Shown here: one piece after another, positions 2,136 through 61,516 of the stretch
How the letters are laid out: every line of letters begins with the position of its first letter
Numbering within the stretch: the first letter of the stretch is position 1
Sequence record: PQ362703.1
Reading direction: 5' to 3' (one strand)
DNA from: Escherichia phage vB_EcoP_PW8
DNA: 64,000 bases
Position numbers and translations under genes: made by a program
Notes under the pieces: model-generated
What the model saw: only the letters and a program-made list of their open reading frames with translations
Database searches by the model: none
Told to the model about the DNA's origin: nothing

Positions 2136-2183
2136 GTAGCAACCTCTTTGTTTTTCTATAGGCCACATTGTTGTGGCCTTATT

Positions 2184-3317
2184 TTACAAAATAGTAATAG
2201 GAATCAATGTCACTACTACGTTACCAGGTACATAAGTAAGCTGATCACCTGTTACTGAGCCTACCCTAACGTTAGTAGGTAGCGGAGGTAGCTTATATGA
2301 CTTCTGCTGCCCAGTGACATAAATGACAGCTTTGTCATTAAGATAAGTAGTAGTATCTACATCTAGGATTACCTCAGAGTCTTTAATATTAAACCCCCGG
2401 GCAATCTCTTGAATGGTGCGATCTGTAGCATAGATAGTTTCAATATTACCGCCGATAGAGACAATCAATACATCATCAGTTGCCAGAGGTTCAGTTAGGA
2501 ATATGCGATGATTATTTGGGTCAATTGTATAGGACTTACTTGCCAGTCCCTTGTATCTGCGTAAACCGTTAACATAGATGGCAGGCACATCAAGGAATTC
2601 GAAAGGTATATCAATTACCTGCTCACCACCTACTGCATTACCGTAGTTATATAGCCAGTTAACAACACGCCAATTGTCAATGGTTGGCTTATCAGGAGAA
2701 GCAGGAACTCCTGTAAGGAAAGCGATTACTTCCTGCCCAGCTTCTAGTTCCTGTGCTAAGGTAATTACACCAGTAGTAGGATTAAACTCAAAACCCTTGC
2801 CTACTATCTGAACAAACCCATCTACAGTAATGAAGGGAACACCTACTGTATCTACGGGTACATTTACAGTTGTTTCCCCACCAACAGCATCATAGCTAAA
2901 CAAGATATATGTACTACTTCCTTCAGTAGGTTGGTCACCAGAACTAGAACTAACAGCTACCCAAGAACCGGAGGCAGAAGGGTTATCTGGAATAATCCCA
3001 GTAAGGTCGCCATCAACGTAAAGGTAGTCAGTGATTATACGCTTACCATCTATAGCAGTTTCGTAAATACGGGCATACTTAGCATCAGTAGTAAGAGCCT
3101 TAAGTTCGGCCTCAGACTGTATGCCAATAACCATTCCATACTGGTTCAGAAAATCATACAGGAGTTTAAGGTTACCCAAATTACAGTACACAGTACGAAC
3201 CACATGGTAAGCATTACCTAGTAGTGCATCTACCATTGGGTCATTGGAACTGTTCTGACAGTAAGGATTGGACCAATCCTGCTTTGCATCGAAGGGGTTG
3301 TGTGCGTTCATCGCCAT
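2184..3317 (-). CDS. virion/tail-associated structural protein
   Basis: 377-aa minus-strand ORF between the tail fiber-like gene and the terminase, in the late operon. No motif recognised. Confidence 0.4.
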   Translation of the reverse strand: MAMNAHNPFDAKQDWSNPYCQNSSNDPMVDALLGNAYHVVRTVYCNLGNLKLLYDFLNQYGMVIGIQSEAELKALTTDAKYARIYETAIDGKRIITDYLYVDGDLTGIIPDNPSASGSWVAVSSSSGDQPTEGSSTYILFSYDAVGGETTVNVPVDTVGVPFITVDGFVQIVGKGFEFNPTTGVITLAQELEAGQEVIAFLTGVPASPDKPTIDNWRVVNWLYNYGNAVGGEQVIDIPFEFLDVPAIYVNGLRRYKGLASKSYTIDPNNHRIFLTEPLATDDVLIVSIGGNIETIYATDRTIQEIARGFNIKDSEVILDVDTTTYLNDKAVIYVTGQQKSYKLPPLPTNVRVGSVTGDQLTYVPGNVVVTLIPITIL

Positions 3318-4018
3318 CCTCGTTGTTCAAATTTAGTTTCGGTAATTGAAATACTTCCATTAGCCAGGTCGTAATCAACAACCTCACCACAGATGCTTTC
3401 ATACGTTTGCAGATACTCTGCTGCCTTAGCATTAGCTTCCGGAGTATTCAAACCAGTGTGGTAACGATAACCCACCCAGTTATGAAGTGCTGTCATTAAT
3501 GTGTCTGCTAAGTCAACTTCCTGTTCTTCATCACCCGTAAGTACTGGGTGCTTAGCTTGATAAGTTACGTTAAGTGCCTCGAAGTGTCGAGGTCGCATAC
3601 ACTGAATAGTATCAGGCCGAGGGGTAAAAATTGCATGTGGGTCTGAATCGTCGTTCAGTCTACGTCTATTCCCAGAGCTATCAAATACATTTAAGATTTT
3701 AATAACATCATCCTGGAAAGGTTTCATGAACCCATCCATGATGTATGGATATTGAATCTCAAGAGTAGGCTTAGTAAAACGAGAATAGGCATATTTGGAT
3801 TGAAGAGGGTAATCAGTACGACCTTCCTTCATTTCCACAATACAACTATTAGTTCTGAGAGGAAAACGACTATGTAGTCGTACCAGCCCCTCATTAATAG
3901 CAGCCAGTATCTCAGGCTTACTATCTGGTTCAATATCTAATCTGTCATCCGTGACTGCACCAGTACCCTTCAAGGTACTCAATGCCAAGCCACGATATAC
4001 TTCCGATAATTTTTGCAT
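3308..4018 (-). CDS. hypothetical late protein adjacent to terminase
   Basis: 236-aa ORF directly downstream of the large terminase on the same strand. No motif recognised. Confidence 0.35.
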   Translation of the reverse strand: MQKLSEVYRGLALSTLKGTGAVTDDRLDIEPDSKPEILAAINEGLVRLHSRFPLRTNSCIVEMKEGRTDYPLQSKYAYSRFTKPTLEIQYPYIMDGFMKPFQDDVIKILNVFDSSGNRRRLNDDSDPHAIFTPRPDTIQCMRPRHFEALNVTYQAKHPVLTGDEEQEVDLADTLMTALHNWVGYRYHTGLNTPEANAKAAEYLQTYESICGEVVDYDLANGSISITETKFEQRGWR

Positions 4019-4024
4019 GGTTCC

Positions 4025-5635
4025 TCACACAATGTATGAACGCAGTGGGTTAATACTATCTTCTTCTTCATCATCCCACATTGGGTCACCCTTGTTATCC
4101 ACCATAGTCATACCTGCTTGTGGTTTCCAGGGATTGAGATAACCCAGCATAGAGATAGTATCAATACAGTCATCCTTACCTTTGATTCCATTAATGGTAG
4201 CTAATTTAATCTGGCCCATGAATAAACCCATAATAGTTGAATCTCTCAACTCTTCCGGGAAGTACATTTTACCAGCTTTGAACCATGGAACTACCAGGTT
4301 AAAACGTGACAGCTTAGAGGTTACAGGACGTATGCCTGGCTTACCACCCTCAGAGGATGCAAAGTTAAAGAAGACATTACGGTTAATCATTTCTTTCTGA
4401 AGAAGCGAGATGAACCCACCTTGCTGCCCTGTAATTTCGACCCCAACGTTTTGTGGTTGGTATTCCTGAACCAGACGGAACAGGTCATCAAAGTTTTTAT
4501 CCATAAGCTGACGATTAGCCACACCATCAACCCAGAACCAATCTCCATTAGAACTATAGGCCCAAACTGATATGACACTGTAGTCACTGGTCTGTTTCTC
4601 CGAAGTAGCAAAGTCGGTTGTAATGTAATAGTTGTAGCAGGACTTCATCCTTAATAGTTGCTGTCTGCTATACCATCTAATTTCACTATCCTGAACCAGT
4701 CTCTCATCTTCAGAGCTAATACGGAGCATAAGTTCCTGATAGAAGCCTGCAAGCTTACCCGTCTTAACTGCCATATCATATTGAGCCTTAATGTAGTCAT
4801 AAGAGAAACGGTCATCCCATGCACCCTGAAATTCTTCTCTACTACAAGGGAACTTCTCACACACAGGCCATACGTTGACATCCCATGCACCAGACTCAAC
4901 TGCTTCAATGATAATGTCTTCCTTATTAAAGGGAGTACCATTGAAGATTACTTTACGACGAGTAGGATCAAGGGCATGGTTCACACCTTTATAGACGGTG
5001 TCTTTAATAGCTTCCATGCTTGTTTTAGAGTTAGCATCACCATCACTAATCAGGTCATCCAATACACAGAGTGTTGGACGTTTGCCATATATCTTCGTAC
5101 CACGAAGACCTGTCTTAGCACCAAATAGCTTAACACCAAGTCGATGCCCTTCTACATTACGAAACTCTAACAGGTTATCCGTAAAGGTAGCTTCAGGTAT
5201 CCATTGCTGAAGGAACTCACTATTCTTGTAACGAAACTCAATGTTCTTACGTGCAGACTTAGCTCCGTTATCCATTGAGTCAGATACGTAAATCATTCCT
5301 TCTACCTTACCAAGACTTGGTAAGTGCCCAAACACTGCCAAGAACAAAGTAAAGTATTCCATGAATACAGCAGTCTTACCTGCACCACGGAAGCACAGGT
5401 TAACTACATACTGGTTCGGACTAATCATCTTATCCAGCATCTTCAAGTGAACTGGCGGTGTTTTGTTGGATTCACCTTCCTTACCATTAACCAACTTAAT
5501 GAAGTTGGCAAAGGTAAGAGCAAACTGACTAGGAACATAGTTAGATGAATTTAGGTGGGAGTAATCCACCTGGTCTAGCCATTCATCCAGTTCCTGTTTA
5601 ATTAACTCAGACATCTGTAATGTCCTCATCTGCAC
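4025..5635 (-). CDS. terL: terminase large subunit
   Basis: 536 aa. N-terminal P-loop (FRGAGKTAV) and C-terminal nuclease-like acidic segment (YYITTDFATSEKQTSDYSVISVW). Confidence 0.8.
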   Translation of the reverse strand: MQMRTLQMSELIKQELDEWLDQVDYSHLNSSNYVPSQFALTFANFIKLVNGKEGESNKTPPVHLKMLDKMISPNQYVVNLCFRGAGKTAVFMEYFTLFLAVFGHLPSLGKVEGMIYVSDSMDNGAKSARKNIEFRYKNSEFLQQWIPEATFTDNLLEFRNVEGHRLGVKLFGAKTGLRGTKIYGKRPTLCVLDDLISDGDANSKTSMEAIKDTVYKGVNHALDPTRRKVIFNGTPFNKEDIIIEAVESGAWDVNVWPVCEKFPCSREEFQGAWDDRFSYDYIKAQYDMAVKTGKLAGFYQELMLRISSEDERLVQDSEIRWYSRQQLLRMKSCYNYYITTDFATSEKQTSDYSVISVWAYSSNGDWFWVDGVANRQLMDKNFDDLFRLVQEYQPQNVGVEITGQQGGFISLLQKEMINRNVFFNFASSEGGKPGIRPVTSKLSRFNLVVPWFKAGKMYFPEELRDSTIMGLFMGQIKLATINGIKGKDDCIDTISMLGYLNPWKPQAGMTMVDNKGDPMWDDEEEDSINPLRSYIV

Positions 5636-6296
5636 GTACTAGTTTAGAACCAGCAACCTCTTTGGTAGGTACACCACTATTGATTGCATTAATCTGCTGT
5701 TCAGCTAATGCAGCAAGTGTTGCCTTGAGGTCGGTCAATCCAGAGTTCTCTCTCAAGTCCAGATTGATATTTGTTACCTGGTCTTTTGGTTTAGCTAAGT
5801 GAGTAAGGATAGAGTTAGCTGCATCACATCTTACCTTCTCGCTTGCTGCTGTAGTCATCAGTTCAACCTGAACGTTGATTGCCTTCTGGTAGTTGTCCTG
5901 GTTCACAATCCACACTGGAACCAGACTTTGTTCCATGATGAGGTTAACTAACTTACCTCTGTGATATGCAGATACATAAGCACTAATATCTTTCTCACTG
6001 GTTCCTCGTGCTACTAGTTCTGCTTGTCGGTTAGGGAATGTCTTGAAGTAGGCTTCCTTATTTGAGTAGCCCATATGTTTATAAGTCACATACTGAACTG
6101 CATTCATGTAGTCCTGCGTCTTAAACTTACCTTCCTTCATTACACCAGAGTAGGAGATAAAGTTTTCACGGAAGGACTCAGCAACCAGTTGATCTTGGAT
6201 TATGTTGTTAATTGTGTCTACCAACTCCTGGGTCACACTGTTCTTAAAGTTAGTAGGTAGTGCATTAATAATCTGCTGCTTAGTTAGTTCACTCAT
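5607..6296 (-). CDS. putative terminase small subunit
   Basis: 229-aa ORF immediately upstream of and overlapping terL on the same strand. Assignment by position only. Confidence 0.3.
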   Translation of the reverse strand: MSELTKQQIINALPTNFKNSVTQELVDTINNIIQDQLVAESFRENFISYSGVMKEGKFKTQDYMNAVQYVTYKHMGYSNKEAYFKTFPNRQAELVARGTSEKDISAYVSAYHRGKLVNLIMEQSLVPVWIVNQDNYQKAINVQVELMTTAASEKVRCDAANSILTHLAKPKDQVTNINLDLRENSGLTDLKATLAALAEQQINAINSGVPTKEVAGSKLVRADEDITDV

Positions 6297-6466
6297 ACTT
6301 ATCTCGCTACAAAGTTATGTCTATTAAAGAAGATTCTTTTCTTGGGGTGAGTTACCCCTTGAATAGACGATACCATACAGTTACACTTTAGTCATGATAT
6401 AGAAAAGTTCATGATACTGTATAGTATGTAATGTTCCGATGACCTTATTCCCCAAAGGAGTAACCT

Positions 6467-6757
6467 TTGAGAATCTATATGAGAGTCCACGACTCTAAAG
6501 ATGAATACAAAGAGCTAGACCACACCAAGGCTGGTATTCTTTCAGGTGATATTATCATTACCCATGATGAAGATACTTACCATGAATTAGCTGGGATGAT
6601 GCTGTTAGATAATCGTCATGGCATTAAGATCCTAGAACCAAGAGAAACTTACTCTTTAGAAAAACGTCCTTCATCTCTTGTGTTCTTCACAAAATTACCT
6701 CATAGTGTCTCCGTCAGTCGAAGCAAAGACAGTGTTCGGATGATGGTGACGATGTGA
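6467..6757 (+). CDS. early protein, paralog family member 1
   Basis: Carries the shared core motif (IIITHDEDTYHELAGMMLLDNRHGIKILEP) seen in five downstream ORFs. Track start is TTG at 6467; an ATG lies at 6479. Confidence 0.5.
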   Translation: MRIYMRVHDSKDEYKELDHTKAGILSGDIIITHDEDTYHELAGMMLLDNRHGIKILEPRETYSLEKRPSSLVFFTKLPHSVSVSRSKDSVRMMVTM

Positions 6758-6957
6758 TTAGTCATGCCGCCTAGTAGACAGTGGCGGTACTCGTAAAGAG
6801 TTAATAACTTCTACAGTCAGGGTTGCCCGGCTCCTTTCCTACCTAGTAGGCTAACGATACACATGTATCTAGGGTGATGAACTGACCCGTGATAGAAAAC
6901 GGTAAGGGGTAGAGTCGAGAGGCTCTACCCCATTTCTTTTTCAGGAGGTATGCAATT

Positions 6958-7353
6958 ATGAGCATCTACGCCTTTGACATTGATATTACCGGTGTACTCC
7001 GTAAGCAGGAACCCTACTACCTAGGGGAACCTGAGATGGTTAGTAAATTCCTATCTAAACATGTAGTCTTCCTACCAGACTGTGGGGAATCCCATGAGAT
7101 AGTTGGTTCATTTTTCTTAAGTAATCTGCAAATTAACACTGAGATACTTACTGAACCAAAGGTGTATGATCTTACTGAGTACTCTGACTTCGAAACATTC
7201 TTCCCAGGAATCAGGTTCTATAAAGTACCTGGTTGGGAAATGATTGTTGAACATAACCTATTTAATAAAACGCTTTCCGTTTACTTCAGACACATTCCTA
7301 AAGGAAGGAAAATCCATCATGAAATTCATACTAACCGCCCCCAGTTTTGTTAA
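6958..7353 (+). CDS. early protein, paralog family member 2
   Basis: Core motif VVFLPDCGESHEIVGSFFLSNLQINTEILTEP. Confidence 0.5.
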   Translation: MSIYAFDIDITGVLRKQEPYYLGEPEMVSKFLSKHVVFLPDCGESHEIVGSFFLSNLQINTEILTEPKVYDLTEYSDFETFFPGIRFYKVPGWEMIVEHNLFNKTLSVYFRHIPKGRKIHHEIHTNRPQFC

Positions 7354-7633
7354 AGGGGAATTCTTATACACAACAGACTTTACTTTAGAAGAAGTCATAG
7401 ATAGCAATCCTCAGCATGTAATCCTGGTTCCTACCTTAGAGGATTATCATGAAGTAAGGGGTCAGCTCTTCTTATCAGGTAACGACCGTAAAGTTGTATG
7501 CATCATTCCTCCATCAGTGTATACCGATAGTAGTGCGTATGACGCTTTGCCTTTCATGATGGTATCCGATAACTACCAATGGGATTGTAGGCATGAGGAT
7601 GAGAAATACCATTACTACTATGTAAGGAAGTAA
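7319..7633 (+). CDS. early protein, paralog family member 3
   Basis: Core motif VILVPTLEDYHEVRGQLFLSGNDRKVVCIIPP. Start placed at ATG 7319 (AAGGAAGG RBS) rather than track start 7244. Confidence 0.5.
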   Translation: MKFILTAPSFVKGEFLYTTDFTLEEVIDSNPQHVILVPTLEDYHEVRGQLFLSGNDRKVVCIIPPSVYTDSSAYDALPFMMVSDNYQWDCRHEDEKYHYYYVRK

Positions 7634-7636
7634 GAT

Positions 7637-7960
7637 ATGCACCTGTATTGCCTGCTTAGTTTTGCCACTACATGTTATTTATCCCCATACACGCTGGATA
7701 ATATTCTGGCAGGTAAGGGCAGTGTTACCACCATCCTGTATGAACCAAGTGAAGAAGCAGAAGAGTTCATTGGTTCCTGTATCATGTTAGGAATACCTAT
7801 TACCTTGACTAAGATAAATACTTCCATTGTAGTACCAGAAGGTAAGCTAGTGTATATCTTCTCTTCCCAAGAACCCATGGTAGTTACTACCCTAACTGGT
7901 AGACTTATTACCCTCTATCCTTCTACCTCATATTTATCTAGCGACGAGTGTGCCCCATGA
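7637..7960 (+). CDS. early protein, paralog family member 4 (divergent)
   Basis: Weaker version of the motif (TILYEPSEEAEEFIGSCIMLGIPITLTKINTSIVVPEGK). Same size and tandem position. Confidence 0.4.
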   Translation: MHLYCLLSFATTCYLSPYTLDNILAGKGSVTTILYEPSEEAEEFIGSCIMLGIPITLTKINTSIVVPEGKLVYIFSSQEPMVVTTLTGRLITLYPSTSYLSSDECAP

Positions 7961-8295
7961 ATAGAGTACTGTATCTCCATCAGTATAAGGATGAAGTCTC
8001 TGTTTACTCCGAGAATATCAATGAAGCTATTGAGTGGTTACTACTACAAGACTGTCATATGCTTATGCTATCAGGAGATCTAGCAGATAGTACCCGTGGT
8101 TCAATTCTTCTACTTAATAGCCCGGCTAAGTTAACCATCCTTAATCCGGGGGAATTCATAAAGATACCTGCTGGTGAATCTGCATTCTTGTTCTTTGAAC
8201 CAAGGATAGAAGAAGGGTTTGTCGGGCTTACTATAGATAGTAGACCTAATAAAGATTTTAAAAGAGTAAGGATTATATCCCATGAAACTTACTAA
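7948..8295 (+). CDS. early protein, paralog family member 5
   Basis: Motif MLMLSGDLADSTRGSILLLNSPAKLTILNPGE. Overlaps its neighbours by about 13 nt. Confidence 0.45.
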   Translation: MCPMNRVLYLHQYKDEVSVYSENINEAIEWLLLQDCHMLMLSGDLADSTRGSILLLNSPAKLTILNPGEFIKIPAGESAFLFFEPRIEEGFVGLTIDSRPNKDFKRVRIISHETY

Positions 8296-8608
8296 GATAG
8301 GTTATGCTGGTGGACCTATTTCCACTACCCATACAACCTTACAAGACCTTGTGCCAGGTAGGCTCACTCCTATTATCCTAGTACCGGACGAACAAACACT
8401 GCACGAAGTTAAAGGATTAGCTTTATTACTAAACAAGGAGGTTATCGTAGAAGTCCTTGAACCAGGAAAAGAACTACCATGGTCCTCCTACATGTACTCC
8501 CCCTGGCATGTGAATGCGGATAAGTACACTCTTACCTTTGGTATCACAAATGAACTGCAAACCCCTCACTTGGTATATGCTTCCTCCTATTTATCTGCTT
8601 ATAAGTAA
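8282..8608 (+). CDS. early protein, paralog family member 6
   Basis: Motif IILVPDEQTLHEVKGLALLLNKEVIVEVLEPGKE, the closest match to members 1 and 3. Confidence 0.5.
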   Translation: MKLTKIGYAGGPISTTHTTLQDLVPGRLTPIILVPDEQTLHEVKGLALLLNKEVIVEVLEPGKELPWSSYMYSPWHVNADKYTLTFGITNELQTPHLVYASSYLSAYK

Positions 8609-8752
8609 GATAGCTATCATATTTTTGCATATGAAAAGTAGCATAGTTATGTATGGCTATAGTGCTACACCTGGGGCTACACCCTTACACTCAACCATCC
8701 CCCCCGGTATGTTGACGGTGTAGCCACTACCCTACCCCACCTTACACGTTAC

Positions 8753-8767
8753 ACATGCTCCGCATGT
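8753..8767 (+). promoter_or_regulatory. candidate virion-RNAP hairpin promoter (ACATGC-TCC-GCATGT)
   Basis: Perfect 6-bp stem with 3-nt TCC loop (GGA on the other strand), about 45 nt upstream of the gene at 8810. Same GC-TCC-GC core as the hairpins at 9242 and 12405. Confidence 0.45.
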
Positions 8768-8809
8768 TATGGACATGTCGTCCTATCATCAACTATTGGA
8801 GCTATCATC

Positions 8810-9133
8810 ATGACTACTCAAGCTACTGTACGTATGACTGCAGGAACTTTACTTGGTACTGTTAACTCAGCTGCTACTACTGTTGCAGATACATTCAGCA
8901 CTGCAACTAAAGCAGTAGGTATGCTTAATTCGTATGTTAGTACGATGGCAGAGAAACAAGCCATTCGTACTAAATTAGAAATGCATACCTTTGTTAATAA
9001 ACTGGCTGAAGAAACAGCTATGACCGAGACTCTGCGTAAGAAAAGTATTGAGGAATTCTGCAAGGATTCAGAGAACGCTCGTATCTATAACGCAGAATAT
9101 TCAAAAGTAATCGACATCCTGACTAAAGACTAA
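8810..9133 (+). CDS. early protein, hypothetical
   Basis: 107-aa ORF with GGAG RBS, preceded by a hairpin promoter candidate and followed by a strong terminator. Confidence 0.45.
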   Translation: MTTQATVRMTAGTLLGTVNSAATTVADTFSTATKAVGMLNSYVSTMAEKQAIRTKLEMHTFVNKLAEETAMTETLRKKSIEEFCKDSENARIYNAEYSKVIDILTKD

Positions 9134-9141
9134 GTCACCTA

Positions 9142-9168
9142 GGAGGCTCTTCGGAGTCTCCTTTTATA
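9142..9168 (+). terminator. intrinsic terminator (8-bp stem, TTCG loop, T-tract)
   Basis: GGAGGCTC-ttcg-GAGTCTCC followed by TTTTAT. Confidence 0.65.
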
Positions 9169-9241
9169 AACATTAGATAGATAGTCAAAAGTAGATAACT
9201 ATCTACTTTAAGTTAACTAACTCGCACTATCTTTAAAAGAA

Positions 9242-9256
9242 AGACGCTCCGCGTCT
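9242..9256 (+). promoter_or_regulatory. candidate virion-RNAP hairpin promoter (AGACGC-TCC-GCGTCT)
   Basis: Perfect 6-bp stem with TCC loop, 12 nt upstream of the ATG at 9268. Confidence 0.45.
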
Positions 9257-9267
9257 AAAGGATAAGA

Positions 9268-9747
9268 ATGAATCCACTTCTTATCGAAATCTTAAGTCTT
9301 TTCTTGGGTTTAGTCACCGACGGACAAACCCATAAATCAAAAAATCATTTATCTGGAGAGTACAAAATGTCTATTCAAAAATTCACTTTCGGTCAATCTA
9401 ACGCTGCTGCTTCTACTGCTAAAACTGATAAACCAAAAGCTCAGTTATGGCTGAACATTGGTTATGTAGCTAATGAAGGCTCTGATGATGAGAAATTCAT
9501 CTCTCTGCCTACTGGTATTCCACTGGATACTCAGGAACCGCTGCCTACTAATAGCAGCAATGCTGACTTCCGTGCTATGCGTTGTGCACAGAACGACTTG
9601 CTGGAACAGTTAATCGCATATGCTCAGAACCTGGAACCAGGTGAAGAGGGTATCATTAACCTGCAAGTTCAACTTCGTCGTGTGAAAGCAGAGGCTGCTG
9701 ACATCCCAGCAGACGAGAATAAATATGCCCGTAAACTGACTTTCTAA
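9268..9747 (+). CDS. early protein, hypothetical
   Basis: 159-aa ORF. An alternative ATG at about 9366 has a GGAGAG RBS. Strong terminator follows. Confidence 0.45.
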
Positions 9748-9757
9748 TCAACTACTA

Positions 9758-9785
9758 GACTCCCTTCGGGGAGTCTTTTATTTTT
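9758..9785 (+). terminator. intrinsic terminator (GACTCCC-ttcg-GGGAGTC plus T-tract)
   Basis: Perfect 7-bp stem, TTCG loop, then TTTTATTTTT. Confidence 0.7.
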
Positions 9786-9887
9786 AACTATGCGAAAGGC
9801 TATTTCTACTTTTTGAGTATCTTTAGACGAAGGGTACTGAAACAGTAACCAGATAGATATAGATTTATATTAGAAGAGGAATTAACC

Positions 9888-10076
9888 ATGTTAGATTTCA
9901 TCACTTTCTGTGTAATCTTCTACTTTCTGGGTTGGAAGTTACGTCATAAATGGTTGCTTATTGCTAAGCTGCCATTCGTTACTATCGAGTGTCTCATTGC
10001 TAGTGTTAAACATAAGAAAGCAATGACTCAGTACTACAAGCAACAAGCAGAAGAGTTTGCAAAGAGGAACCAGTGA
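9888..10076 (+). CDS. small early protein, hypothetical
   Basis: 62-aa ORF with a hydrophobic N-terminus. Confidence 0.3.
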   Translation: MLDFITFCVIFYFLGWKLRHKWLLIAKLPFVTIECLIASVKHKKAMTQYYKQQAEEFAKRNQ

Positions 10077-10255
10077 TATTCACTAACATAGAAGATGCCA
10101 TTGAAGAATGTATCTTTCGTAGGTATCACACTGGTGTACAGAAACGACACTATGGTGTTGTGCAACTCAATGGTTATCAAATGGTTGTAAGAATTGTACG
10201 TAACAATAAACCTTTTAACTTTATGTGGAGTACTAAATCATGCGTAAATCATTAA
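10073..10255 (+). CDS. small early protein, hypothetical
   Basis: 60-aa ORF overlapping the upstream stop codon. Confidence 0.3.
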   Translation: MIFTNIEDAIEECIFRRYHTGVQKRHYGVVQLNGYQMVVRIVRNNKPFNFMWSTKSCVNH

Positions 10256-10368
10256 TCATGGGAACCAAAGAAGATGTACAGAAGATGAAAGGGCGTCTGG
10301 CTGCTAAGAAACAGGCATCTGAACCAGTACGTAAGATTGTTACCTTCAACCATCCATGTATCAAATAA
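10240..10368 (+). CDS. small basic protein (42 aa), below the track cutoff
   Basis: ATG at 10240 with GGAG 9 nt upstream, stop at 10366-10368, terminator immediately downstream. Read by eye. Confidence 0.3.
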   Translation: MRKSLIMGTKEDVQKMKGRLAAKKQASEPVRKIVTFNHPCIK

Positions 10369-10373
10369 CAAGG

Positions 10374-10405
10374 AGTCCTCCATTAGGAGGGCTTCTATTT
10401 TTTAT
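10374..10405 (+). terminator. intrinsic terminator
   Basis: AGTCCTCC-atta-GGAGGGCT (one G-U pair) followed by TCTATTTTTTATT. Confidence 0.55.
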
Positions 10406-10446
10406 TCTTGAATAGTTAGATATGTATTTAAATAGGAGAAATAACC

Positions 10447-10764
10447 TTGAACGAAATTGTTTGTATACTTCCACATTCAGCTAAGATAGCTGACCGGAAT
10501 ATACGTATCCACTTACCATTCCCACTAAGCAATCCATTCTCTCGTAATGAAAGAACCACAGTAGAAGATATAGAGGTAGCTTATGAAGCTTACCTTCGTA
10601 ATCGTCTTATTAGTGGTGACAAGTTAATTACAGCAGAGATGGAAAGGATTGCATCCTTTGTAACAGATAGTACAGGTAAGCCTGTAGGCCTAATAGGTAC
10701 TGAATCTGATGTAAATGTTATTCGTAAAATACTACTGGAGGCACTAAGTGAACAACCTCAGTGA
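10447..10764 (+). CDS. hypothetical early protein
   Basis: 105-aa ORF with TTG start in the track. Confidence 0.35.
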   Translation: MNEIVCILPHSAKIADRNIRIHLPFPLSNPFSRNERTTVEDIEVAYEAYLRNRLISGDKLITAEMERIASFVTDSTGKPVGLIGTESDVNVIRKILLEALSEQPQ

Positions 10765-10981
10765 TGTAATTGTAGGTAATGAGATATTCGTTGACCGAAA
10801 AGGCTATGCAAGAATTAAACTAAAGGGTACTAACAGAACTATTGTTCGTAAGGTGTACTCTAAACCTTTTAGCAATTTCTCTATTGATGAAGTACGCATT
10901 AATAACAAGATGTACTTCATAGATAGTAAAGTATCTGTATGCCATACAGATGGTAAAACCTCTCTTGAATATACTTACTAA
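10748..10981 (+). CDS. hypothetical early protein
   Basis: 77-aa ORF overlapping its neighbour. Confidence 0.3.
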   Translation: MNNLSDVIVGNEIFVDRKGYARIKLKGTNRTIVRKVYSKPFSNFSIDEVRINNKMYFIDSKVSVCHTDGKTSLEYTY

Positions 10982-10993
10982 GGAGTAAGCAAA

Positions 10994-11215
10994 ATGCTGT
11001 TCAGCACTAATTATGGAATCTGCCCAATCTGTAAGAAAGGAAGAGGAGTTGCTAATCATAAGAAGTGTAGTCGTATCCTACAGAAACAACGGAACCAGAA
11101 GGAATGGGATAAGATACTGGAAAATCAGCACAAAGATGAGTTCAAGGAGACAGCTATTAAAGCATCTACTCAGCTTATTCGTCGTACTAACTTCATAGAA
11201 GGCTACCAGAAATGA
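10994..11215 (+). CDS. small zinc-ribbon-like protein
   Basis: 73 aa with CPIC...HKKC cysteine/histidine spacing. Confidence 0.35.
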   Translation: MLFSTNYGICPICKKGRGVANHKKCSRILQKQRNQKEWDKILENQHKDEFKETAIKASTQLIRRTNFIEGYQK

Positions 11216-11466
11216 TTATTACGTATCCTACGGGCAAGAACGTGGAATATATGAAACATACTATTCAAGTGCCTCACTGGGTTAAGTATATAGCGTTATA
11301 TACTCGACAGTATAAGAGTGCTAATACCTCATTAATAGGATTCTCTAAGAAGCCTAAACTAACAGAAAACAATATCTGGGTATCCTCTGGGAGACAAGAA
11401 GAGATTGGTTTTTGCGATTTGAGTATTGTCGATAATAACATCTATGGGACATTGAGAAAGGTATGA
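11212..11466 (+). CDS. hypothetical protein
   Basis: 84-aa ORF, start overlaps upstream stop. Confidence 0.35.
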   Translation: MIITYPTGKNVEYMKHTIQVPHWVKYIALYTRQYKSANTSLIGFSKKPKLTENNIWVSSGRQEEIGFCDLSIVDNNIYGTLRKV

Positions 11467-11783
11467 AAACTATTCTAGTAGTTCATGATTCTACATTTAC
11501 TGATGTAGATAAGATGATGCGTAATATTGATTATGTATCTCAGACAAGCCAGGCATTCAACGAAGAGTTTACTCTCTACTGTAATGCTAAATCACCGCTG
11601 GTTCCTATTCTTAAGGAATCAGGTCTACCCTTCTCTACAGAGAACTTCCCGGAAGAACCAGACTATGTAATCTCATTTATCTATGACTTACATGATGGTT
11701 CTGAAATAAGTGAATTAGCTATGAACCAGTGGCGTAGTAAACGTCCTGTGTTCGCATTTCAGGTACTTAAACCAAAGGATTAA
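11463..11783 (+). CDS. hypothetical protein
   Basis: 106-aa ORF, start overlaps upstream stop. Confidence 0.35.
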   Translation: MKTILVVHDSTFTDVDKMMRNIDYVSQTSQAFNEEFTLYCNAKSPLVPILKESGLPFSTENFPEEPDYVISFIYDLHDGSEISELAMNQWRSKRPVFAFQVLKPKD

Positions 11784-11785
11784 AT

Positions 11786-12136
11786 ATGAAAGAAATCTTA
11801 GTATTCACTACCAATGTACTTGGGCAGCATACTAATGCTGCTGCCAAATTAGCTTATAAGAAACACGGTGCTCGCTGGGGTATGGCCTATGGTCATTATG
11901 GTAATAGCTTTGCCATTCCAGTAAGAGATGGCAATGGTAACCGAATTAAAGAGGGAGCTATTTATGGCTTCATCGAAGGCTTCATTGCCTATTCATCTTC
12001 TAATCCACAGTGGGATTTTAAAGTCATGAGTAATGACTATCTGGACCCATACCAGTTCATCAATGTAACAGGCAATGTACTGTTACCAGAAGCATGGCGT
12101 AAACACTTAGGTGATGCTTACAACTACTGGAGTTAA
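11786..12136 (+). CDS. hypothetical protein (Gly/aromatic-rich)
   Basis: 116-aa ORF. Motif GARWGMAYGHYGNSFAIP not recognised. Confidence 0.35.
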   Translation: MKEILVFTTNVLGQHTNAAAKLAYKKHGARWGMAYGHYGNSFAIPVRDGNGNRIKEGAIYGFIEGFIAYSSSNPQWDFKVMSNDYLDPYQFINVTGNVLLPEAWRKHLGDAYNYWS

Positions 12137-12138
12137 TA

Positions 12139-12399
12139 ATGACATATGAAGAACTGTGGTCTGCTCAAGTCAGAGCCAGAGCACTCACACGACACGATAT
12201 CTATTATGCATTACAAAATGAATTAAAGAGTCGTACTAAGCTGGGTCACATATCTGGTTTTATTAAGATACCTATGACTAGCCTAGTCTGGCCTTATCAA
12301 AAGAAAAGTAATGAGTTTAACAGTAATGGTCTGCATGTACGTATCGACTACCTTGGTCAAGAGAACAGTATTCGTATTACCTTTTGGACTAAGCGTTAG
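12139..12399 (+). CDS. hypothetical protein
   Basis: 86-aa ORF. Confidence 0.35.
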   Translation: MTYEELWSAQVRARALTRHDIYYALQNELKSRTKLGHISGFIKIPMTSLVWPYQKKSNEFNSNGLHVRIDYLGQENSIRITFWTKR

Positions 12400-12404
12400 G
12401 TAAC

Positions 12405-12419
12405 AGCTGCTCCGCAGCT
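12405..12419 (+). promoter_or_regulatory. candidate virion-RNAP hairpin promoter (AGCTGC-TCC-GCAGCT); could also act as terminator
   Basis: Perfect 6-bp stem with TCC loop, about 35 nt upstream of the RNAP II small-subunit gene. Followed by TTTTGG. Confidence 0.4.
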
Positions 12420-12452
12420 TTTGGTTATTAATCACATTTAGGAGAATAAGCG

Positions 12453-13268
12453 ATGTACTCATCTATTGAACATCAGAAGCAGCTCGAAAAACTATTCAAT
12501 AAAAATCAGCTCTTGCCTCGCATGAGGAAGGAATTCGAGGACTCCGAAGAAATTGACTTTAAGGCTTTTGCTGCCTATTTAGAAATTGATTATAAGCTGC
12601 TCATTGATGCAATGGTGCAGATTGCCCTACATAAACGTGCTGACATCCAAACTATGATTGGCTCTCTCATGAGTCATTCAGATGATGCTCAGTATATCGC
12701 TGACTGTCTGTATAAGATGGCAGAGAATGACTGCTTCAACTATGACCCTACCATCGACAAGTTCGGTGTTATTTATGAGATTAGTGAAGATGTACAGATG
12801 GAACTGGAAGCATTCCAGTACCCATTGCCTATCGTAAGTGCTCCTAAGCCTGTTAAGTGTAACCGTGATACTGGTTACTACGAAAGCAGAGGTAGCATCA
12901 TCCTCAAGAAGAACCATCATGAGATGGATGTCTGTCTTGACCATATCAACCGTATGAACAATCAACGTCTCTGCATTAACTGGGACGTTGCTAACTATGT
13001 AAAAGACTCCCGTCCTAACATGGATAAACCCAAAGAGGGTGAAACCCGTCAGGACTACGAGAAGCGTGTTAAAGCCTTTGAGAAGTACAGCCGTACAGCT
13101 AAGGAAGTAATGGAGCTAGTGACCAAAGAAGGTAATAACTTCTCCTTGGCTCATCGTTACGATAAGAGAGGACGCACTTACTGTTCCGGATATCATATAT
13201 CCTATCAAGGCACTTCCTATAACAAAGCTGTTATTGAATTTGCAGACAAAGAACTAGTAGAGGACTAA
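12453..13268 (+). CDS. phage RNA polymerase II small subunit (T7-like RNAP N-terminal part)
   Basis: 271 aa, immediately upstream of the catalytic subunit. Assignment by size and synteny with the N4 two-gene RNAP II. Confidence 0.45.
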   Translation: MYSSIEHQKQLEKLFNKNQLLPRMRKEFEDSEEIDFKAFAAYLEIDYKLLIDAMVQIALHKRADIQTMIGSLMSHSDDAQYIADCLYKMAENDCFNYDPTIDKFGVIYEISEDVQMELEAFQYPLPIVSAPKPVKCNRDTGYYESRGSIILKKNHHEMDVCLDHINRMNNQRLCINWDVANYVKDSRPNMDKPKEGETRQDYEKRVKAFEKYSRTAKEVMELVTKEGNNFSLAHRYDKRGRTYCSGYHISYQGTSYNKAVIEFADKELVED

Positions 13269-13774
13269 TGAAACCAACTCAAGCAGAGTTGATGGAACTA
13301 ATCGACTATGGCCCAGTGAATGGAACATTTCATTGGACTCATAGTCCATTGGTGTACATCAACGTAAGAGGTAAGGAGACTGGCTTATCAGGCTCCAGAG
13401 GACATCGAAAGATTGTCATTAATAAACAGGAATACAAGGCTCATCACGTAGCCTGGTGTATCATGACTGGTTCATGGCCTGAACAGGTGGATCATAATGA
13501 TACAAACCGGGCCAACAACCGTTGGAATAACCTACGTGAGGCAACTCATGCACAGAACATGTGCAATAGAACCATGAACAAGAATAACACTTCTGGATTT
13601 AAAGGTGTGCGTATTCGTAATGGTAAATACTTAGCCCAAATTCAAGTCAAAGGCACCAAAATAGCATTAGGTTCATTCACTGATCCAGTGGATGCTGCTA
13701 AGGCTTATGATGCTGCCGCAATTAAATACTTTGGTGAGTTCGCCAAAACAAACAAAGAACTCAATAACTATTAA
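13268..13774 (+). CDS. HNH homing endonuclease with AP2-like DNA-binding domain
   Basis: 168 aa. HNH-type signature (HHVAW...DHND...N) plus AP2-like C-terminus (SGFKGV...YGEFAKTN). ATG overlaps upstream stop (TAATG). Confidence 0.8.
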   Translation: MKPTQAELMELIDYGPVNGTFHWTHSPLVYINVRGKETGLSGSRGHRKIVINKQEYKAHHVAWCIMTGSWPEQVDHNDTNRANNRWNNLREATHAQNMCNRTMNKNNTSGFKGVRIRNGKYLAQIQVKGTKIALGSFTDPVDAAKAYDAAAIKYFGEFAKTNKELNNY

Positions 13775-13791
13775 TCCATTATGCGAGCCAA

Positions 13792-15036
13792 GTGGCTCAA
13801 GACGCTAAGGAACATAAAATGCAACTGTTAACCGCTCGTGAATACCTGAAAGTAGATATCGCCAATTCTTATGGCTTGGATAAAAAGACATGGGATGAAC
13901 GTATTGCTTGGTTTGATGAGAACGAAGCTAACCTGCTTAATCTGGTAGATGAAGCTGAAGATTCTGCTCTGTTCTTTGCTGGTGTAAACGCATGGAAAGA
14001 TATGAAAGCAGGTAAACCTATTGGTTATGCCGTAGCTCTTGATGCTACATCATCTGGCTTGCAGTTACTGGCCTGCCTGACTGGTGACCGTTCTGCTGCT
14101 GAACTGTGTAACGTAGTTAACTACATGGGCGAGAATGGTAAGCCATTACGTCGTGATGCTTATACAGTCATCTATCACAAGATGCTGGACATCCTTGGTG
14201 AAGCATCCCGTATTAAACGTAGTGACACTAAGCAGGCAGTTATGACTGCATTCTATGGTTCAGAAGCCAAGCCTAAAGAAGTATTCGGTGAAGGTATTCG
14301 TCTCAAGACTTTTGAGAATGTAATGGAAACTGTTGCTAGTGGTCCTTGGGCACTTAACAAGTTCTTACTGCAATGTGGTAATCCAGATGCCAACCGTTAT
14401 GTATGGGTACTTCCTGACAACTTCCACGCTGTCATTAAGGTCATGATTCCAGAAGTACAGACTGTTAACTTCTTAGGTAAGCCATTTGACATCACTCGTA
14501 TGGTTCAAGGTACTGAAGAGAAGACCCGTATGCTCTCTGCTAACATCACCCACTCTATTGATGGAATGGTGGTACGTGAGATGCTGCGTCGTTGTAACTT
14601 CGACATGAACCAGATGAGCTATGTTAAGGCTCTTTGTGAGGGAACTGGTGAATACACGGTAGGTTCTGATGATAATTATGAAATGGTTAATACACTATGG
14701 ACTAGTTATGAGAAGTCTGGATTCCTGTCTACCCGTATCTTTGATTATCTGGACTCAGAAACCATTGCATTGGTAGATACAGATGTAATCTTAGCTATGC
14801 TCAATACTATGCCTAAGAAGCCATTCCCTGTAATGACTGTACATGACTGCTTCCGTTGCCATCCTAACTACGGTAATGACCTACGTCGTCAGTACAATCA
14901 GATTCTGTCCGACATTGCTAAGAGTGACCTACTGGGTTTCATCCTGTCTCAGGTACTAGGACAAGAGTTCTCTGCTGGTAAGCTGGATGACAGCCTCTGG
15001 CAGGACATTCTTGAAACAGACTATGCGTTGAGTTAA
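13792..15036 (+). CDS. phage RNA polymerase II catalytic subunit (T7-like single-subunit RNAP)
   Basis: 414 aa. T7 RNAP-like motif A (ALDATSSGLQLLAC), motif B (RSDTKQAVMTAFYGS) and motif C (VHDCF). Confidence 0.75.
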   Translation: MAQDAKEHKMQLLTAREYLKVDIANSYGLDKKTWDERIAWFDENEANLLNLVDEAEDSALFFAGVNAWKDMKAGKPIGYAVALDATSSGLQLLACLTGDRSAAELCNVVNYMGENGKPLRRDAYTVIYHKMLDILGEASRIKRSDTKQAVMTAFYGSEAKPKEVFGEGIRLKTFENVMETVASGPWALNKFLLQCGNPDANRYVWVLPDNFHAVIKVMIPEVQTVNFLGKPFDITRMVQGTEEKTRMLSANITHSIDGMVVREMLRRCNFDMNQMSYVKALCEGTGEYTVGSDDNYEMVNTLWTSYEKSGFLSTRIFDYLDSETIALVDTDVILAMLNTMPKKPFPVMTVHDCFRCHPNYGNDLRRQYNQILSDIAKSDLLGFILSQVLGQEFSAGKLDDSLWQDILETDYALS

Positions 15037-15043
15037 TAAACTA

Positions 15044-15076
15044 GCCTCATTCCTTCGGGAGTGAGGCCTATTTTTT
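15044..15076 (+). terminator. intrinsic terminator (10-bp stem, TTCG loop)
   Basis: GCCTCATTCC-ttcg-GGAGTGAGGC followed by CTATTTTTTG. Confidence 0.65.
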
Positions 15077-15093
15077 GCTTGGAGGTAGCAACT

Positions 15094-15276
15094 ATGCTAA
15101 TCAATTTTGAAGTAATCTTTCAGCTAATACTGATAGTTTTATCTGTACTGGTTCTGGCTACGATAATCCGTGCCCACAAATCTAAGTTTGCTTACTGCTA
15201 CTATGGAGCATACTCACTTGGCTGTTTTGTAATAGCAGGATGGATAGCTTTTGCTATCTACTGCGTAAACAACTAA
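15094..15276 (+). CDS. small membrane protein
   Basis: 60 aa from ATG 15094 (GGAGG RBS). Two hydrophobic helices. Track start 15061 lies inside the upstream terminator. Confidence 0.35.
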   Translation: MLINFEVIFQLILIVLSVLVLATIIRAHKSKFAYCYYGAYSLGCFVIAGWIAFAIYCVNN

Positions 15277-15277
15277 C

Positions 15278-15303
15278 CCTCCTAACGGAGGATTTATTTT
15301 TTT
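15278..15303 (+). terminator. intrinsic terminator (short stem)
   Basis: CCTCC-taac-GGAGG followed by ATTTATTTTTTT. Confidence 0.5.
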
Positions 15304-15350
15304 ACATGTCATGTATACTAATCCTGCTATTTACTTATGAGGAAATTGAT

Positions 15351-16184
15351 ATGCCAACTTTGAAAGTAGGTTTTAACAAAACCACTAATGTTGTAACCGT
15401 ACTGGATGCCGGTGGTTCTATCCCGGGTGGTTCCGTAGAAGTAGGAACCTTTGTACACCCGGACGCCACTTACCCAGATAGCTTAGTTATCTTCCATGGT
15501 GTTCGTGATCTGCTGTATAAACGCTCTGCTAAAGATCCTAGTAAAGCAGGCTTCTGGCCTAACAATATCGTGGATATGCAGTCTATCTCTATTGATATGA
15601 AAGCTACCCCACGACTGACTATTGCTACTAAACTAGCTCGTGTAGTCTCCGCTATCGAAGGTGAAGACATCAACTGGCATGTTGATGTAGCGGGTGGCAA
15701 AGCACCATTTACTTATAAATGGCAGTTCAAAGCTGATACTGCTGGTGCAGCATTCGCTGATATTAGCTCCAGTACTAACCAATCAGCTGCTACTGCAACG
15801 CTGACCCTTAAAGGCGTAACAGCTGCTTCTGCTGGTACTTACAAAGTGATTGTTACTGATGCTAATGGAACCACGGTAGAAGATGAGTCACTGCTGGCTG
15901 TAGGCTACTACGAAGCAAGCTCTCTGGTAGCTACTCCTGCTTCACTGGATCTGTCTGTTGCTGCTGATATTACCGATGGCAAGACTGTAACCATTGTTGC
16001 TATGCCTGTTGGTTCTTCTTCTGGTGCTTTATCTATCAAGACTGCTCCAGAATCTGGTCGTGCTACAGCTACCATTGCTGGTAACGTACTGACAGTTAAG
16101 CCTGTGGCTGCTGGCGATGCTACTTCTGTAGTAGTTACCAACGGTACTGTCGATGTAACTATCCCTATTACTGTTGCAGAATAA
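15351..16184 (+). CDS. Ig-like domain protein, probable capsid decoration protein
   Basis: Start placed at ATG 15351 (GAGGA RBS); track start 15240 overlaps the terminator. Ig-like segment (FTYKWQFK...GTYKVIVTD) and Ala/Thr/Val-rich beta repeats. Confidence 0.5.
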   Translation: MPTLKVGFNKTTNVVTVLDAGGSIPGGSVEVGTFVHPDATYPDSLVIFHGVRDLLYKRSAKDPSKAGFWPNNIVDMQSISIDMKATPRLTIATKLARVVSAIEGEDINWHVDVAGGKAPFTYKWQFKADTAGAAFADISSSTNQSAATATLTLKGVTAASAGTYKVIVTDANGTTVEDESLLAVGYYEASSLVATPASLDLSVAADITDGKTVTIVAMPVGSSSGALSIKTAPESGRATATIAGNVLTVKPVAAGDATSVVVTNGTVDVTIPITVAE

Positions 16185-16234
16185 GGGTATTCTTTGTTTG
16201 GGGTTATAAACCCTGAAATAAAACTCCCAAGTTT

Positions 16235-16264
16235 GACCTCCCTATTGAAGGGAGGTCTTTTTTT
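16235..16264 (+). terminator. intrinsic terminator
   Basis: GACCTCCC-tattgaa-GGGAGGTC followed by TTTTTTT. Confidence 0.7.
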
Positions 16265-16289
16265 GACTTAAAAATCCTGGAGCCAGGAA

Positions 16290-16478
16290 ATGTATAAAGA
16301 AATTGCATTCTTCTCGTTCTTACTTGGTGGTTTGATAGGTGCAGGATTTGTAGCTATTTCTAATACCTACTTTGGTTCTACCCCAAACTCTGTAACACAA
16401 ACCCTCAAGCATGAATGTGAATTGAATATCCCTCGTAATCAAAACTGTGTAATGCAGTTCATACCGGAGAAGAGATGA
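16290..16478 (+). CDS. small membrane protein
   Basis: 62 aa, GGAG RBS, one hydrophobic helix. Confidence 0.35.
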   Translation: MYKEIAFFSFLLGGLIGAGFVAISNTYFGSTPNSVTQTLKHECELNIPRNQNCVMQFIPEKR

Positions 16479-16660
16479 AATTAACCCAGTCCCAGATTAT
16501 TTTCCTTCGCATGGTTCAAGGTGGTTCTGCCACCAGCAACCGTAATAACAAAACTGCACAGTCTCTTAAGAAACTGGGCTTAGTACAGTTCAATACTGGT
16601 CTTGGGTGGTCATTAACCCCTATCGGTGTACTTCAACTCAGTGAAATGAAAGGTAACTAA
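16475..16660 (+). CDS. small protein, possible helix-turn-helix
   Basis: 61-aa ORF. Confidence 0.3.
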   Translation: MKLTQSQIIFLRMVQGGSATSNRNNKTAQSLKKLGLVQFNTGLGWSLTPIGVLQLSEMKGN

Positions 16661-55507: not shown

Positions 55508-55554
55508 ACTTATATCGTATATAGGAAGCTTACTCTACAGTAAGCCAGTGTAAG

Positions 55555-55577
55555 AAAAAAGCCCCGAAGGGCTTTTG
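55555..55577 (-). terminator. minus-strand intrinsic terminator between the upstream virion gene and vRNAP
   Basis: On the minus strand: AAAAGCCC-ttcg-GGGCTTTTTT. Confidence 0.55.
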
Positions 55578-55583
55578 TTAGTA

Positions 55584-57548: not shown

Positions 57549-57560
57549 GATGGATTCCTA

Positions 57561-58004
57561 TTAACGAGTTAGCTTATTAGCTGCAATGTAAGCATCAGCA
57601 GTAGATTGGTCACGGTTTTCTGCTGTAGCACGACTACGAGCACGGTCTTCCAGTGCAGTGTTATAAGACTTAATCTGGTTATTCAGATTAGTGTTAGTAA
57701 CACTCTTAGTAAAGTTCAACTGGTCTTTAGCTAACTTATTGGCTTGGAAACCACTATAGATATTAGCCAATGAACCAAGTGCACCCAGTCCTAATTGGAA
57801 GGTAGGTACGTTCATACCTAACTGACTAGCCGAGCCAGACATGAAAGTATTGGGAGCAGATGTACCAAAATTCGTACTCATACCAATAGCTGCACCTGGG
57901 TTGTAGTTCATAGCTGGGGTATTAAAGTTCTGATTGTTATTAGACATCCAGGACATAGCAGCTGGCTGTGGGATTTGGTTGCCTGTTAAGAATGATAAAT
58001 CCAT
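57561..58004 (-). CDS. virion protein, hypothetical
   Basis: 147-aa ORF in the late operon. Confidence 0.4.
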   Translation of the reverse strand: MDLSFLTGNQIPQPAAMSWMSNNNQNFNTPAMNYNPGAAIGMSTNFGTSAPNTFMSGSASQLGMNVPTFQLGLGALGSLANIYSGFQANKLAKDQLNFTKSVTNTNLNNQIKSYNTALEDRARSRATAENRDQSTADAYIAANKLTR

Positions 58005-58017
58005 GGGGATTCTCCTG

Positions 58018-60672: not shown

Positions 60673-60673
60673 A

Positions 60674-61516
60674 TTAGTTCAGCCCGTTGTTAGACTTCAG
60701 CTTGGTTAAAATGGTATCAATACTTGCGTTAGTGAAACCATTTGGTGGGTTCAAGCCTTCATCAATAGTCTTCTGTGTAATCCATGCATCAGTAAACAGC
60801 TTAGATGCTTTAACCTCTGCATCACGTTGGTAAGAAGTAATCTGTTGAGAGTACAGTTCTTTCTGTTTACCTACAGAACCAGTAACAGTAGCACCATCAC
60901 TACGGGTATCTAGTGTCTGTGCACGTTGTGCTTCGGTCTGCTCAGTAATCAGCTTAAGCTGTTGAGGTAACATCTGATTAGCATTAAACAATGCAGCACA
61001 GTACGTCTCAGACTCAGTAGCAATCTTCATCTTAGTAAGAGCGTATTCACTCTTAGCAGACAGTGCCTGAATCTTAGCTAGTACAAACTGAGCTTTAGAA
61101 GTAGCCAATGTAACACGTGCAGTAACTGCCTGAATCTGTGCCAGTGCAGCAGCCCAGTATGCCTGGTCACGACCAAGTAAGAACTGAACAGCATTACTCA
61201 TGCATGATTCCATCATAGCAATGTATGCTTTGGTATATTCACCACCTGTAATACGGTTAGCTTTAAACTCAGCTTTAAGGTGATTATGTGCAGATTCCAT
61301 TAATGCATCAAACGTACCACTACCACCTACTTCACGAGTAGTAAGAGATTCATTGGTTATTTTAGTAATGGCACCAAAGATTGGAGAACCATCCCCACCA
61401 GGGATATCCCATTCGGGGCCAGACATATCAATATCAGGAAGGGCAAAGTCATCACCCTTAGTTAACTCTTCAAGGAGTCGGTTAGCTTCTACCTCAGCAG
61501 AACAAGACATAATCAT
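60674..61516 (-). CDS. virion protein with predicted coiled-coil
   Basis: 280 aa, Ala/Gln/Lys-rich heptad-like region. Confidence 0.4.

Follow-up and report, generated by a model that had tools for sequence, protein, structure and literature searches.

Three left-end hairpins in the genome of Escherichia phage vB_EcoP_PW8 as predicted early promoters for an N4-type virion RNA polymerase

N4 hairpin promoters and their counterparts in vB_EcoP_PW8

The early promoters of phage N4, which are read by the virion RNA polymerase (vRNAP), have been established experimentally as hairpin promoters, with a common GC-rich heptamer centred at -11 and inverted repeats on either side (PMC4496689). The G:C pair closing the loop and the 5' G and 3' A within the loop are necessary for extrusion and stability. 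Specific recognition by vRNAP involves -11A/G, -10G, -8G (a major-groove contact) and +1C, and the other stem bases are variable so long as pairing is kept (PMC4496689). Supercoil- and Mg-dependent extrusion, dependence on gyrase and SSB, and rifampicin-resistant initiation have been established only for N4 (PMC4496689). Here, a 64,000-nucleotide stretch of Escherichia phage vB_EcoP_PW8 (record PQ362703.1; the whole stretch is called the window below) was analysed. It contains three hairpins that are very probably early promoters for a virion-encapsidated, T7-like vRNAP, orthologous to N4 P1, P2 and P3, and they are given the same names in this work. Within Gamaleyavirus these sites correspond to one of the most thoroughly characterised promoter systems of phages, and they are ordinary for N4-type phages. 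The promoter requirements of N4 were taken from the 2015 review cited above (PMC4496689) and from a 2026 electron cryo-microscopy paper (PMC13492108), in which the template-strand P2 oligonucleotide (...CCAAAAGAAGCGGAGCTTC...) fixes the strand and the register.

The preliminary description had placed three hairpins on the + strand, each with a 6-bp stem, a TCC loop and a constant GC-TCC-GC core, and the sequence agrees in every respect (Table 1). The stem is perfect at all three sites, and the core heptamer GCTCCGC lies at 8757-8763, 9246-9252 and 12409-12415, these being the only copies on either strand of the window, all of them +. All three hairpins are intergenic, P3 lying within the 53-nt gap between the stop of an open reading frame (ORF) at 12139-12399 and the gp15 ATG. 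Downstream of each come three A/T bases and GG, whose first G (8771, 9260 and 12423) stands exactly 11 nt away from the centre of the loop. Counted from the last base of the loop the distance is 10 nt, which refines the value of about 10 nt suggested earlier. The hairpin to be recognised is the one on the - strand (for P1, ACATGC-GGA-GCATGT), where each site reads CC-(3 nt)-NNNNGC-GGA-GCNNNN, corresponding to +1C, -8G, -9C, -10G, -11G, -12A, -13G and -14C. The bases required or contacted in N4 (C:G closing pair, loop 5' G and 3' A, purine at -11, -10G, -8G and +1C) are present in all three, and, judged on sequence, every feature that an N4-type vRNAP hairpin promoter requires is found at each site. 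DNA folding gives the same hairpin as the minimum-free-energy structure at each site, on both strands, with energies of -4.4 to -5.9 kcal/mol.

The arrangement is not random. The window contains 41 perfect hairpins with a 6-bp stem and a 3-nt loop, of which three (P1-P3) have a TCC loop and none has a GGA loop on the + strand, which is how the same motif would look if it lay on the other strand. The frequency of the core motif had been put forward as a check on the promoter reading, and here the outcome is divided. The bare heptamer is at its chance level (three observed, 2.1-2.2 expected), so its count alone is uninformative, and only the composite motif, defined as GCTCCGC with a stem of at least 5 bp and GG at +11, is significant. 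This lies far above chance: three are observed, whereas 2000 dinucleotide-preserving shuffles averaged 0.0015 per window and gave 1 at most. No further credible site was found when both strands of the window were scanned for TCC or TTC loops, a core with one mismatch, and stems of at least 4 bp. Relaxing the scan to T-Y-C loops with a C..G closing pair on stems of 5 bp or more brings in a single unrelated site at 42056 (CTTCC-TCC-GGAAG), which was rejected: it has neither the core nor the GG, and falls within a gene of the middle region.

The positions of the three sites match those of N4. In both phages there are three left-end sites ahead of gp1, gp2 and gp15; in the window the distances of the hairpin centres from the left end inferred for the genome are about 91, 580 and 3743 nt, and all of the hairpins point rightward. 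The homologues of the three genes lie directly downstream, so that the placement upstream of early genes, as originally proposed, holds. Window P1 aligns with N4 P1 (nt 90-102), and GGACATGT at its predicted start is identical in N4, G7C and KP8. P2 is placed like N4 P2, between the gp1 terminator and gp2, where the N4 start (G576) is 10 nt before the gp2 ATG (586), compared with 8 nt in the window. For P3, AGCTGCTCCGCAGCTTTTGGT (N4 nt 4547-4567) is identical base for base. The two phages also have in common the 3-nt loop on a stem of 5-7 bp, the GG start that lies 11 nt away from the centre of the loop, and the template bases -12A, -11G, -10G, -9C, -8G and +1C, and the core of N4 P2 and P3 is identical to that of all three window sites. 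The differences are that the loop of P1 is TCC (-11G) in the window and TTC (-11A) in N4; that the outer stems differ at P1 (ACATGC vs GTTGC) and P2 (AGACGC vs AAGAAGC); that the window stems are all exactly 6 bp, whereas those of N4 are 5, 7 and 7 bp; and that the window has about 20 nt extra between P2 and a conserved 17-mer described below.

Table 1. Promoter elements and associated genes of vB_EcoP_PW8 (positions in the window), with the N4 promoters (positions in N4) for comparison.
Feature	Position	Strand	Details
Inferred physical left end of genome	~8669		N4, G7C and KP8 nt 1 align here
P1-like hairpin promoter (predicted)	8753-8767	+	ACATGC-TCC-GCATGT (non-template); loop centre 8760 = -11
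Predicted start GG (+1/+2) of P1	8771-8772	+	39-nt leader to gp1 ATG 8810
gp1 homologue, first early gene	8810-9133	+	107 aa; PHROG 5020, E 1e-44
P2-like hairpin promoter (predicted)	9242-9256	+	AGACGC-TCC-GCGTCT; loop centre 9249
Predicted start GG of P2	9260-9261	+	8 nt ahead of first gp2 ATG (9268)
gp2 homologue	9268-9747	+	159 aa; PHROG 4099, E 8e-51
P3-like hairpin promoter (predicted)	12405-12419	+	AGCTGC-TCC-GCAGCT; loop centre 12412
Predicted start GG of P3	12423-12424	+	30-nt leader to gp15 ATG 12453
RNAPII small subunit (N4 gp15 homologue)	12453-13268	+	PHROG 2166 'N4-like RNA polymerase', E 2e-116
HNH endonuclease ORF	13268-13774		PHROG 99, E 1e-61
RNAPII large subunit (N4 gp16 homologue)	13792-15036	+	PHROG 2051 'RNA polymerase', E 2e-175, residues 10-414
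Virion RNA polymerase	45131-55489	-	~3452 aa from first ATG; ORF 45131-55507, 3452-3458 aa
N4 P1	loop centre 96; +1 G107		GTTGC-TTC-GCAAC ttat GG; gp1 downstream
N4 P2	loop centre 565; +1 G576		AAGAAGC-TCC-GCTTCTT tt GG; gp2 downstream
N4 P3	loop centre 4554; +1 G4565		AAGCTGC-TCC-GCAGCTT tt GG; gp15 downstream

Conservation of the hairpins and the predicted polymerase

IMG/VR loci of close relatives, as well as G7C, KP8 and Jgk1, carry the motif ahead of their homologues of gp1, gp2 and gp15, with the GC-TCC-GC core constant and the GG at the same distance. Single-protein locus searches gave close relatives only, and the wider diversity was reached using tblastn against GenBank phages. The outer stems are variable and complementary, comprising ACATGC, GTTGC, (A)GACGC, (A)GAAGC, GGCTGC, AGCTGC, (A)GGTGC and AAGCAGC; the GACGC type of window P2 also occurs in G7C, KP8 and IMG/VR relatives. 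Comparison of the P1 orthologues (ACATGC/GCATGT in the window, GTTGC/GCAAC in N4, G7C and KP8) reveals two compensatory pair changes. The same motif is listed as putative promoters P1-P4 in the paper describing KP8 (PMC6950046, Table 1), and is annotated as a regulatory 'early promoter' in the KP8 GenBank record (MG922974). Promoter annotation is absent from the best-matching Gamaleyavirus records listed and from the G7C reference record, and a literature search, whose coverage did not extend to the 2012 G7C paper, found no description of Gamaleyavirus or G7C promoters.

The pattern of pairing was counted over 26 distinct sites. Paired bases occupy 95.5% of cells, a figure that falls to 14-46% if the partner column is displaced by 1-3 columns; 29 cells are changed on both sides, four of the six pairs show such both-side changes, and there are at least ten stem variants. 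Five of the six pairs are partly paired by construction, because the set was chosen for a stem of at least 5 bp, and the count is given as an illustration of the pattern. The independent test is provided by a count of unselected bare heptamers, of which there are 20 in the window and in the pieces of N4, G7C, KP8 and Jgk1. All but one (19/20) are on the sense strand of the early genes and embedded in hairpins of at least 5 bp, with GG at +1/+2 in 18 of these 19. The sole heptamer outside this class is in the late region of N4.

The predicted reader of the three hairpins is encoded on the - strand of the same window. Its vRNAP is 67% identical to N4 gp50, rising to 70% over the mini-vRNAP domain, and the domain matches the N4 vRNAP structures PDB 2PO4, 3C2P, 3Q0A and others with E = 0. 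The residues that contact the promoter (K114, R119, W129, K268, K849, K850, D901 and R904) are kept together with their local sequence, as are the catalytic residues D559, R666, K670, Y678 and D951; the offset of the mini-vRNAP numbering was checked on 14 named residues. The unchanged recognition surface of the predicted enzyme matches the unchanged promoter core.

By homology to N4, the following mechanism can be proposed. The genome's left end would go into the cell first, together with vRNAP, and negative supercoiling by host gyrase would extrude each inverted repeat as a small cruciform. Host SSB would then melt the non-template hairpin and spare the template hairpin, which would be unusually stable, having a 6-bp stem and a 5'-GGA-3' loop that is closed by C:G and contains a sheared G:A pair. 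The enzyme would contact -11G (through R119 and W129), -10G (K114 and D901), -9C (D901) and -8G (R904), and binding of the hairpin would open its active site. RNA would begin with GTP opposite the template CC at 8771, 9260 and 12423, and the transcripts would encode gp1, gp2 and both RNAPII subunits, these being the middle-transcription machinery. What is established for N4 is the basis on which we infer, for vB_EcoP_PW8, that the hairpins are extruded, that gyrase and SSB are required, and where transcription actually starts.

Other readings of the hairpins

Hairpins in such positions could also act at the RNA level and punctuate the early operons as intrinsic terminators or attenuators, or P3 could be a terminator as well as a promoter. 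P3 directly follows the stop codon of ORF 12139-12399, and a simple terminator scan picks out 12405-12419 with TTTGGTTATT on the + strand, and also 9256-9242 on the - strand. This is nonetheless very unlikely. P1 is about 90 nt from the linear genome end, with nothing upstream to terminate, and the sense-strand T-run of an intrinsic terminator is missing after P1 (TAT) and P2 (AAA), P3 alone having TTTT. That T-run is not kept in relatives, which have taaGG, ttaGG or ttgtGG, and the evident terminators of the region are built differently, from stems of 8-11 bp, tetraloops and T5-T7 runs. A terminator role would not account for the loop, which is asymmetric and invariant, for the fixed core or for the GG at its fixed distance. 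It is also less likely that P3, with its TTTT tail, attenuates upstream read-through in addition to acting as a promoter. More improbable again is the proposal that the palindromes are double-stranded operators for a dimeric phage or host DNA-binding protein and are not extruded, even though 15-bp near-palindromes that are intergenic and upstream of genes are what such a protein might bind. The outer arms vary freely yet always stay complementary, which argues for selection on pairing rather than on sequence. A symmetric dimer site requires neither an asymmetric TCC centre nor the placement of 19 out of 20 copies on one strand, the fixed-distance GG again has no explanation, and the counterparts in N4 are the experimentally established hairpin promoters discussed above (PMC4496689). 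Finally, 41 perfect hairpins of the same dimensions occur in the window and the bare heptamer is at expectation, as they would be if the sites were functionless chance palindromes. The probability of this is negligible: it is refuted by the shuffle statistics, in which the composite motif was expected 0.0015 times per window and observed three times, and by the unselected heptamer count, and the motif is conserved at the same genomic positions in N4, G7C, KP8, Jgk1 and IMG/VR relatives.

There are also points that weigh against the sites being vRNAP promoters. Their promoter function is assigned by homology. As described above, the bare heptamer is not over-represented, and the pair count, with its sites selected for their stems, does not amount to independent support. 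The scans covered the 64-kb window, with about 8 kb of late genes of the roughly 72-kb genome lying outside it. In the polymerase, K267, a residue involved in melting the base of the stem, is replaced by N, and P3 is followed by the TTTT that a simple terminator scan flags. In favour of vRNAP promoters, which is how the preliminary description had classed the three hairpins as candidates, are the sequence anatomy, the positions, the cognate enzyme and the published KP8 motif; initiation itself is extrapolated from N4.

Genome setting and comparison with related systems

The early region is 89-94% identical to that of G7C-like coliphages (ECBP1, EC1-UPM, pSb-1, IME11 and records named Gamaleyavirus), and for the vRNAP gene the identity to genomes deposited in the collection does not exceed about 94%. 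On the basis of these identities the window is therefore assigned to Gamaleyavirus (Schitoviridae, Enquatrovirinae), and it is a circularly permuted G7C-like genome. Several GenBank Gamaleyavirus records start at query position 622-738, corresponding to 8621-8737 in the window. With the left end placed at about 8669 (Table 1), window 1-8668 is therefore the right end of the genome; it contains terminase-side late genes on the - strand, followed by small + strand ORFs. P1 is probably inside the terminal repeat.

The window gp1 homologue agrees with N4 gp1 in position and in N-terminal sequence. Directly 3' of it, at 9142-9165, is a terminator-like hairpin (GGAGGCTC-TTCG-GAGTCTCC followed by TTTT) that is near-identical to N4 nt 493-516, one loop base being different, and that was missed by the simple terminator scan. 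It is probably a conserved early terminator between the P1 and P2 units. In both phages a 17-mer, ATAACTATCTACTTTAA, sits between this terminator and P2 (9195-9211 in the window, where it is single-copy, and nt 536-552 in N4); it lies within an imperfect palindrome, AGTAGATA-AC-TATCTACT.

The counterpart of gp2 is labelled in the G7C record as similar to N4 gp2, which is an RNAPII cofactor. Its true start may be later than 9268, or the mRNA from 9268 may be near-leaderless. Both starts are considered because the first ATG is 8 nt from the P2 start, the match to PHROG 4099 is limited to residues 34-159, an internal ATG at 9367 is preceded by GGAG, and the 33-residue hydrophobic N-terminal extension is common to N4 and G7C and absent from more distant homologues.

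The preliminary description had put the third hairpin upstream of the RNAPII genes, and this is confirmed by the PHROG matches of both subunits. The two genes are split by an HNH ORF, likely a homing endonuclease, an arrangement that is present in G7C (ST15.1) and absent in N4. The true start of the large subunit is probably a few codons inside ORF 13792-15036.

Further terminator-like hairpins with the long stems, tetraloops and T-runs mentioned above are found on the + strand after gp2 (9757-9776), amid the block of small ORFs (10371-10396), after gp16 (15044-15067) and after the next gene (16235-16257), and they probably delimit early and middle transcription units. Sigma-70-like sites are strongly depleted in 8000-16500, with four found compared with 22.2 +/- 4.9 expected from shuffles, and none on the coding strand. 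The depletion and the terminator-like hairpins are consistent with the three sites being early promoters. Sigma-70-like sites are strongly depleted in the late region as well (45000-64000: 12 vs 34.0 +/- 6.2 in shuffles).

For annotation, the value of the result is that three early units are defined (P1-gp1, P2-gp2 and P3-RNAPII), with predicted starts at 8771, 9260 and 12423. Across Enquatrovirinae, the N4 promoter code, consisting of the GC-GGA-GC template hairpin and the CC start, has been conserved without change together with the enzyme residues by which it is read, and therefore the biochemistry of N4 is probably directly transferable to G7C-like therapeutic coliphages. The finding opens no new question.

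The number of hairpin promoters differs among relatives, with 4-6 in G7C, KP8 and Jgk1, where the extra copies are before small ORFs inserted between gp1 and gp2 (G7C nt 509; KP8 nt 970; Jgk1 nt 594, 1251, 1568 and 1831). At +1/+2 the G7C copy has CG rather than GG, and it could be weak or dead. Jgk1 has P1 twice, the second time as an exact copy 500 nt further downstream. Because the extra copies stand before inserted small ORFs, the promoters could travel with accessory early-gene cassettes. It is conceivable, though we would put it below an even chance, that the hairpin promoters are portable modules, in which case the early-gene cassettes of the subfamily would be exchanged along with their own vRNAP promoter. 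The set in vB_EcoP_PW8 is minimal and N4-like, numbering three, and in it gp2 is fused directly to a promoter of the 'GACGC-type'.

Klebsiella phage KP8 (Kaypoctavirus) has the same GCTCCGC core, palindromic flanks, (T/A)-rich spacer and GG as the window, and its P2 (AAGACGC-TCC-GCGTCTT) has the same stem type as window P2. It differs in having four sites, the extra one ahead of a small ORF inserted between gp1 and gp2, and in that its site before the RNAPII genes lies further upstream, by one small ORF. As with those of the window, the KP8 sites are predictions rather than mapped starts.

Some other phages show changes in the core. The core of the hairpins in Dinoroseobacter phage R7L is CC-TCC-GG (template -8C), and the vRNAP of this phage carries R904->A, D901->E, R119->H and W129->F. 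Achromobacter phage Axy13 keeps both the GC-TCC-GC core and R904, R119 and W129, and Shigella phage B2 has TTC loops and a variable -8 pair. From the four enzyme sequences compared, enzyme and promoter appear to co-vary across relatives.

Hairpin early promoters were predicted for the Pseudomonas phages LUZ7 and LIT1 (PMC3715699), and those of the N4-like LUZ7, with a G start, were later confirmed by 5'-end mapping (PMC9163698). They resemble the window sites in that the stem is short (4 bp or more), the 3-nt loop is conserved, the start is a G and the vRNAP is injected. Their core sequence is different, the start lies 13-14 nt away from the centre of the hairpin, there are nine early transcription start sites, and their vRNAP is only distantly related to that of the window, with about 21% identity across half the polymerase domain. 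The T7-type RNA polymerases have in common with vRNAP the homologous specificity loop, intercalating hairpin and upstream recognition element (PMC4496689). T7 promoters, however, are double-stranded, 23 bp long and without a hairpin, whereas the predicted promoters of vB_EcoP_PW8 are of the type read from a single-stranded template hairpin.

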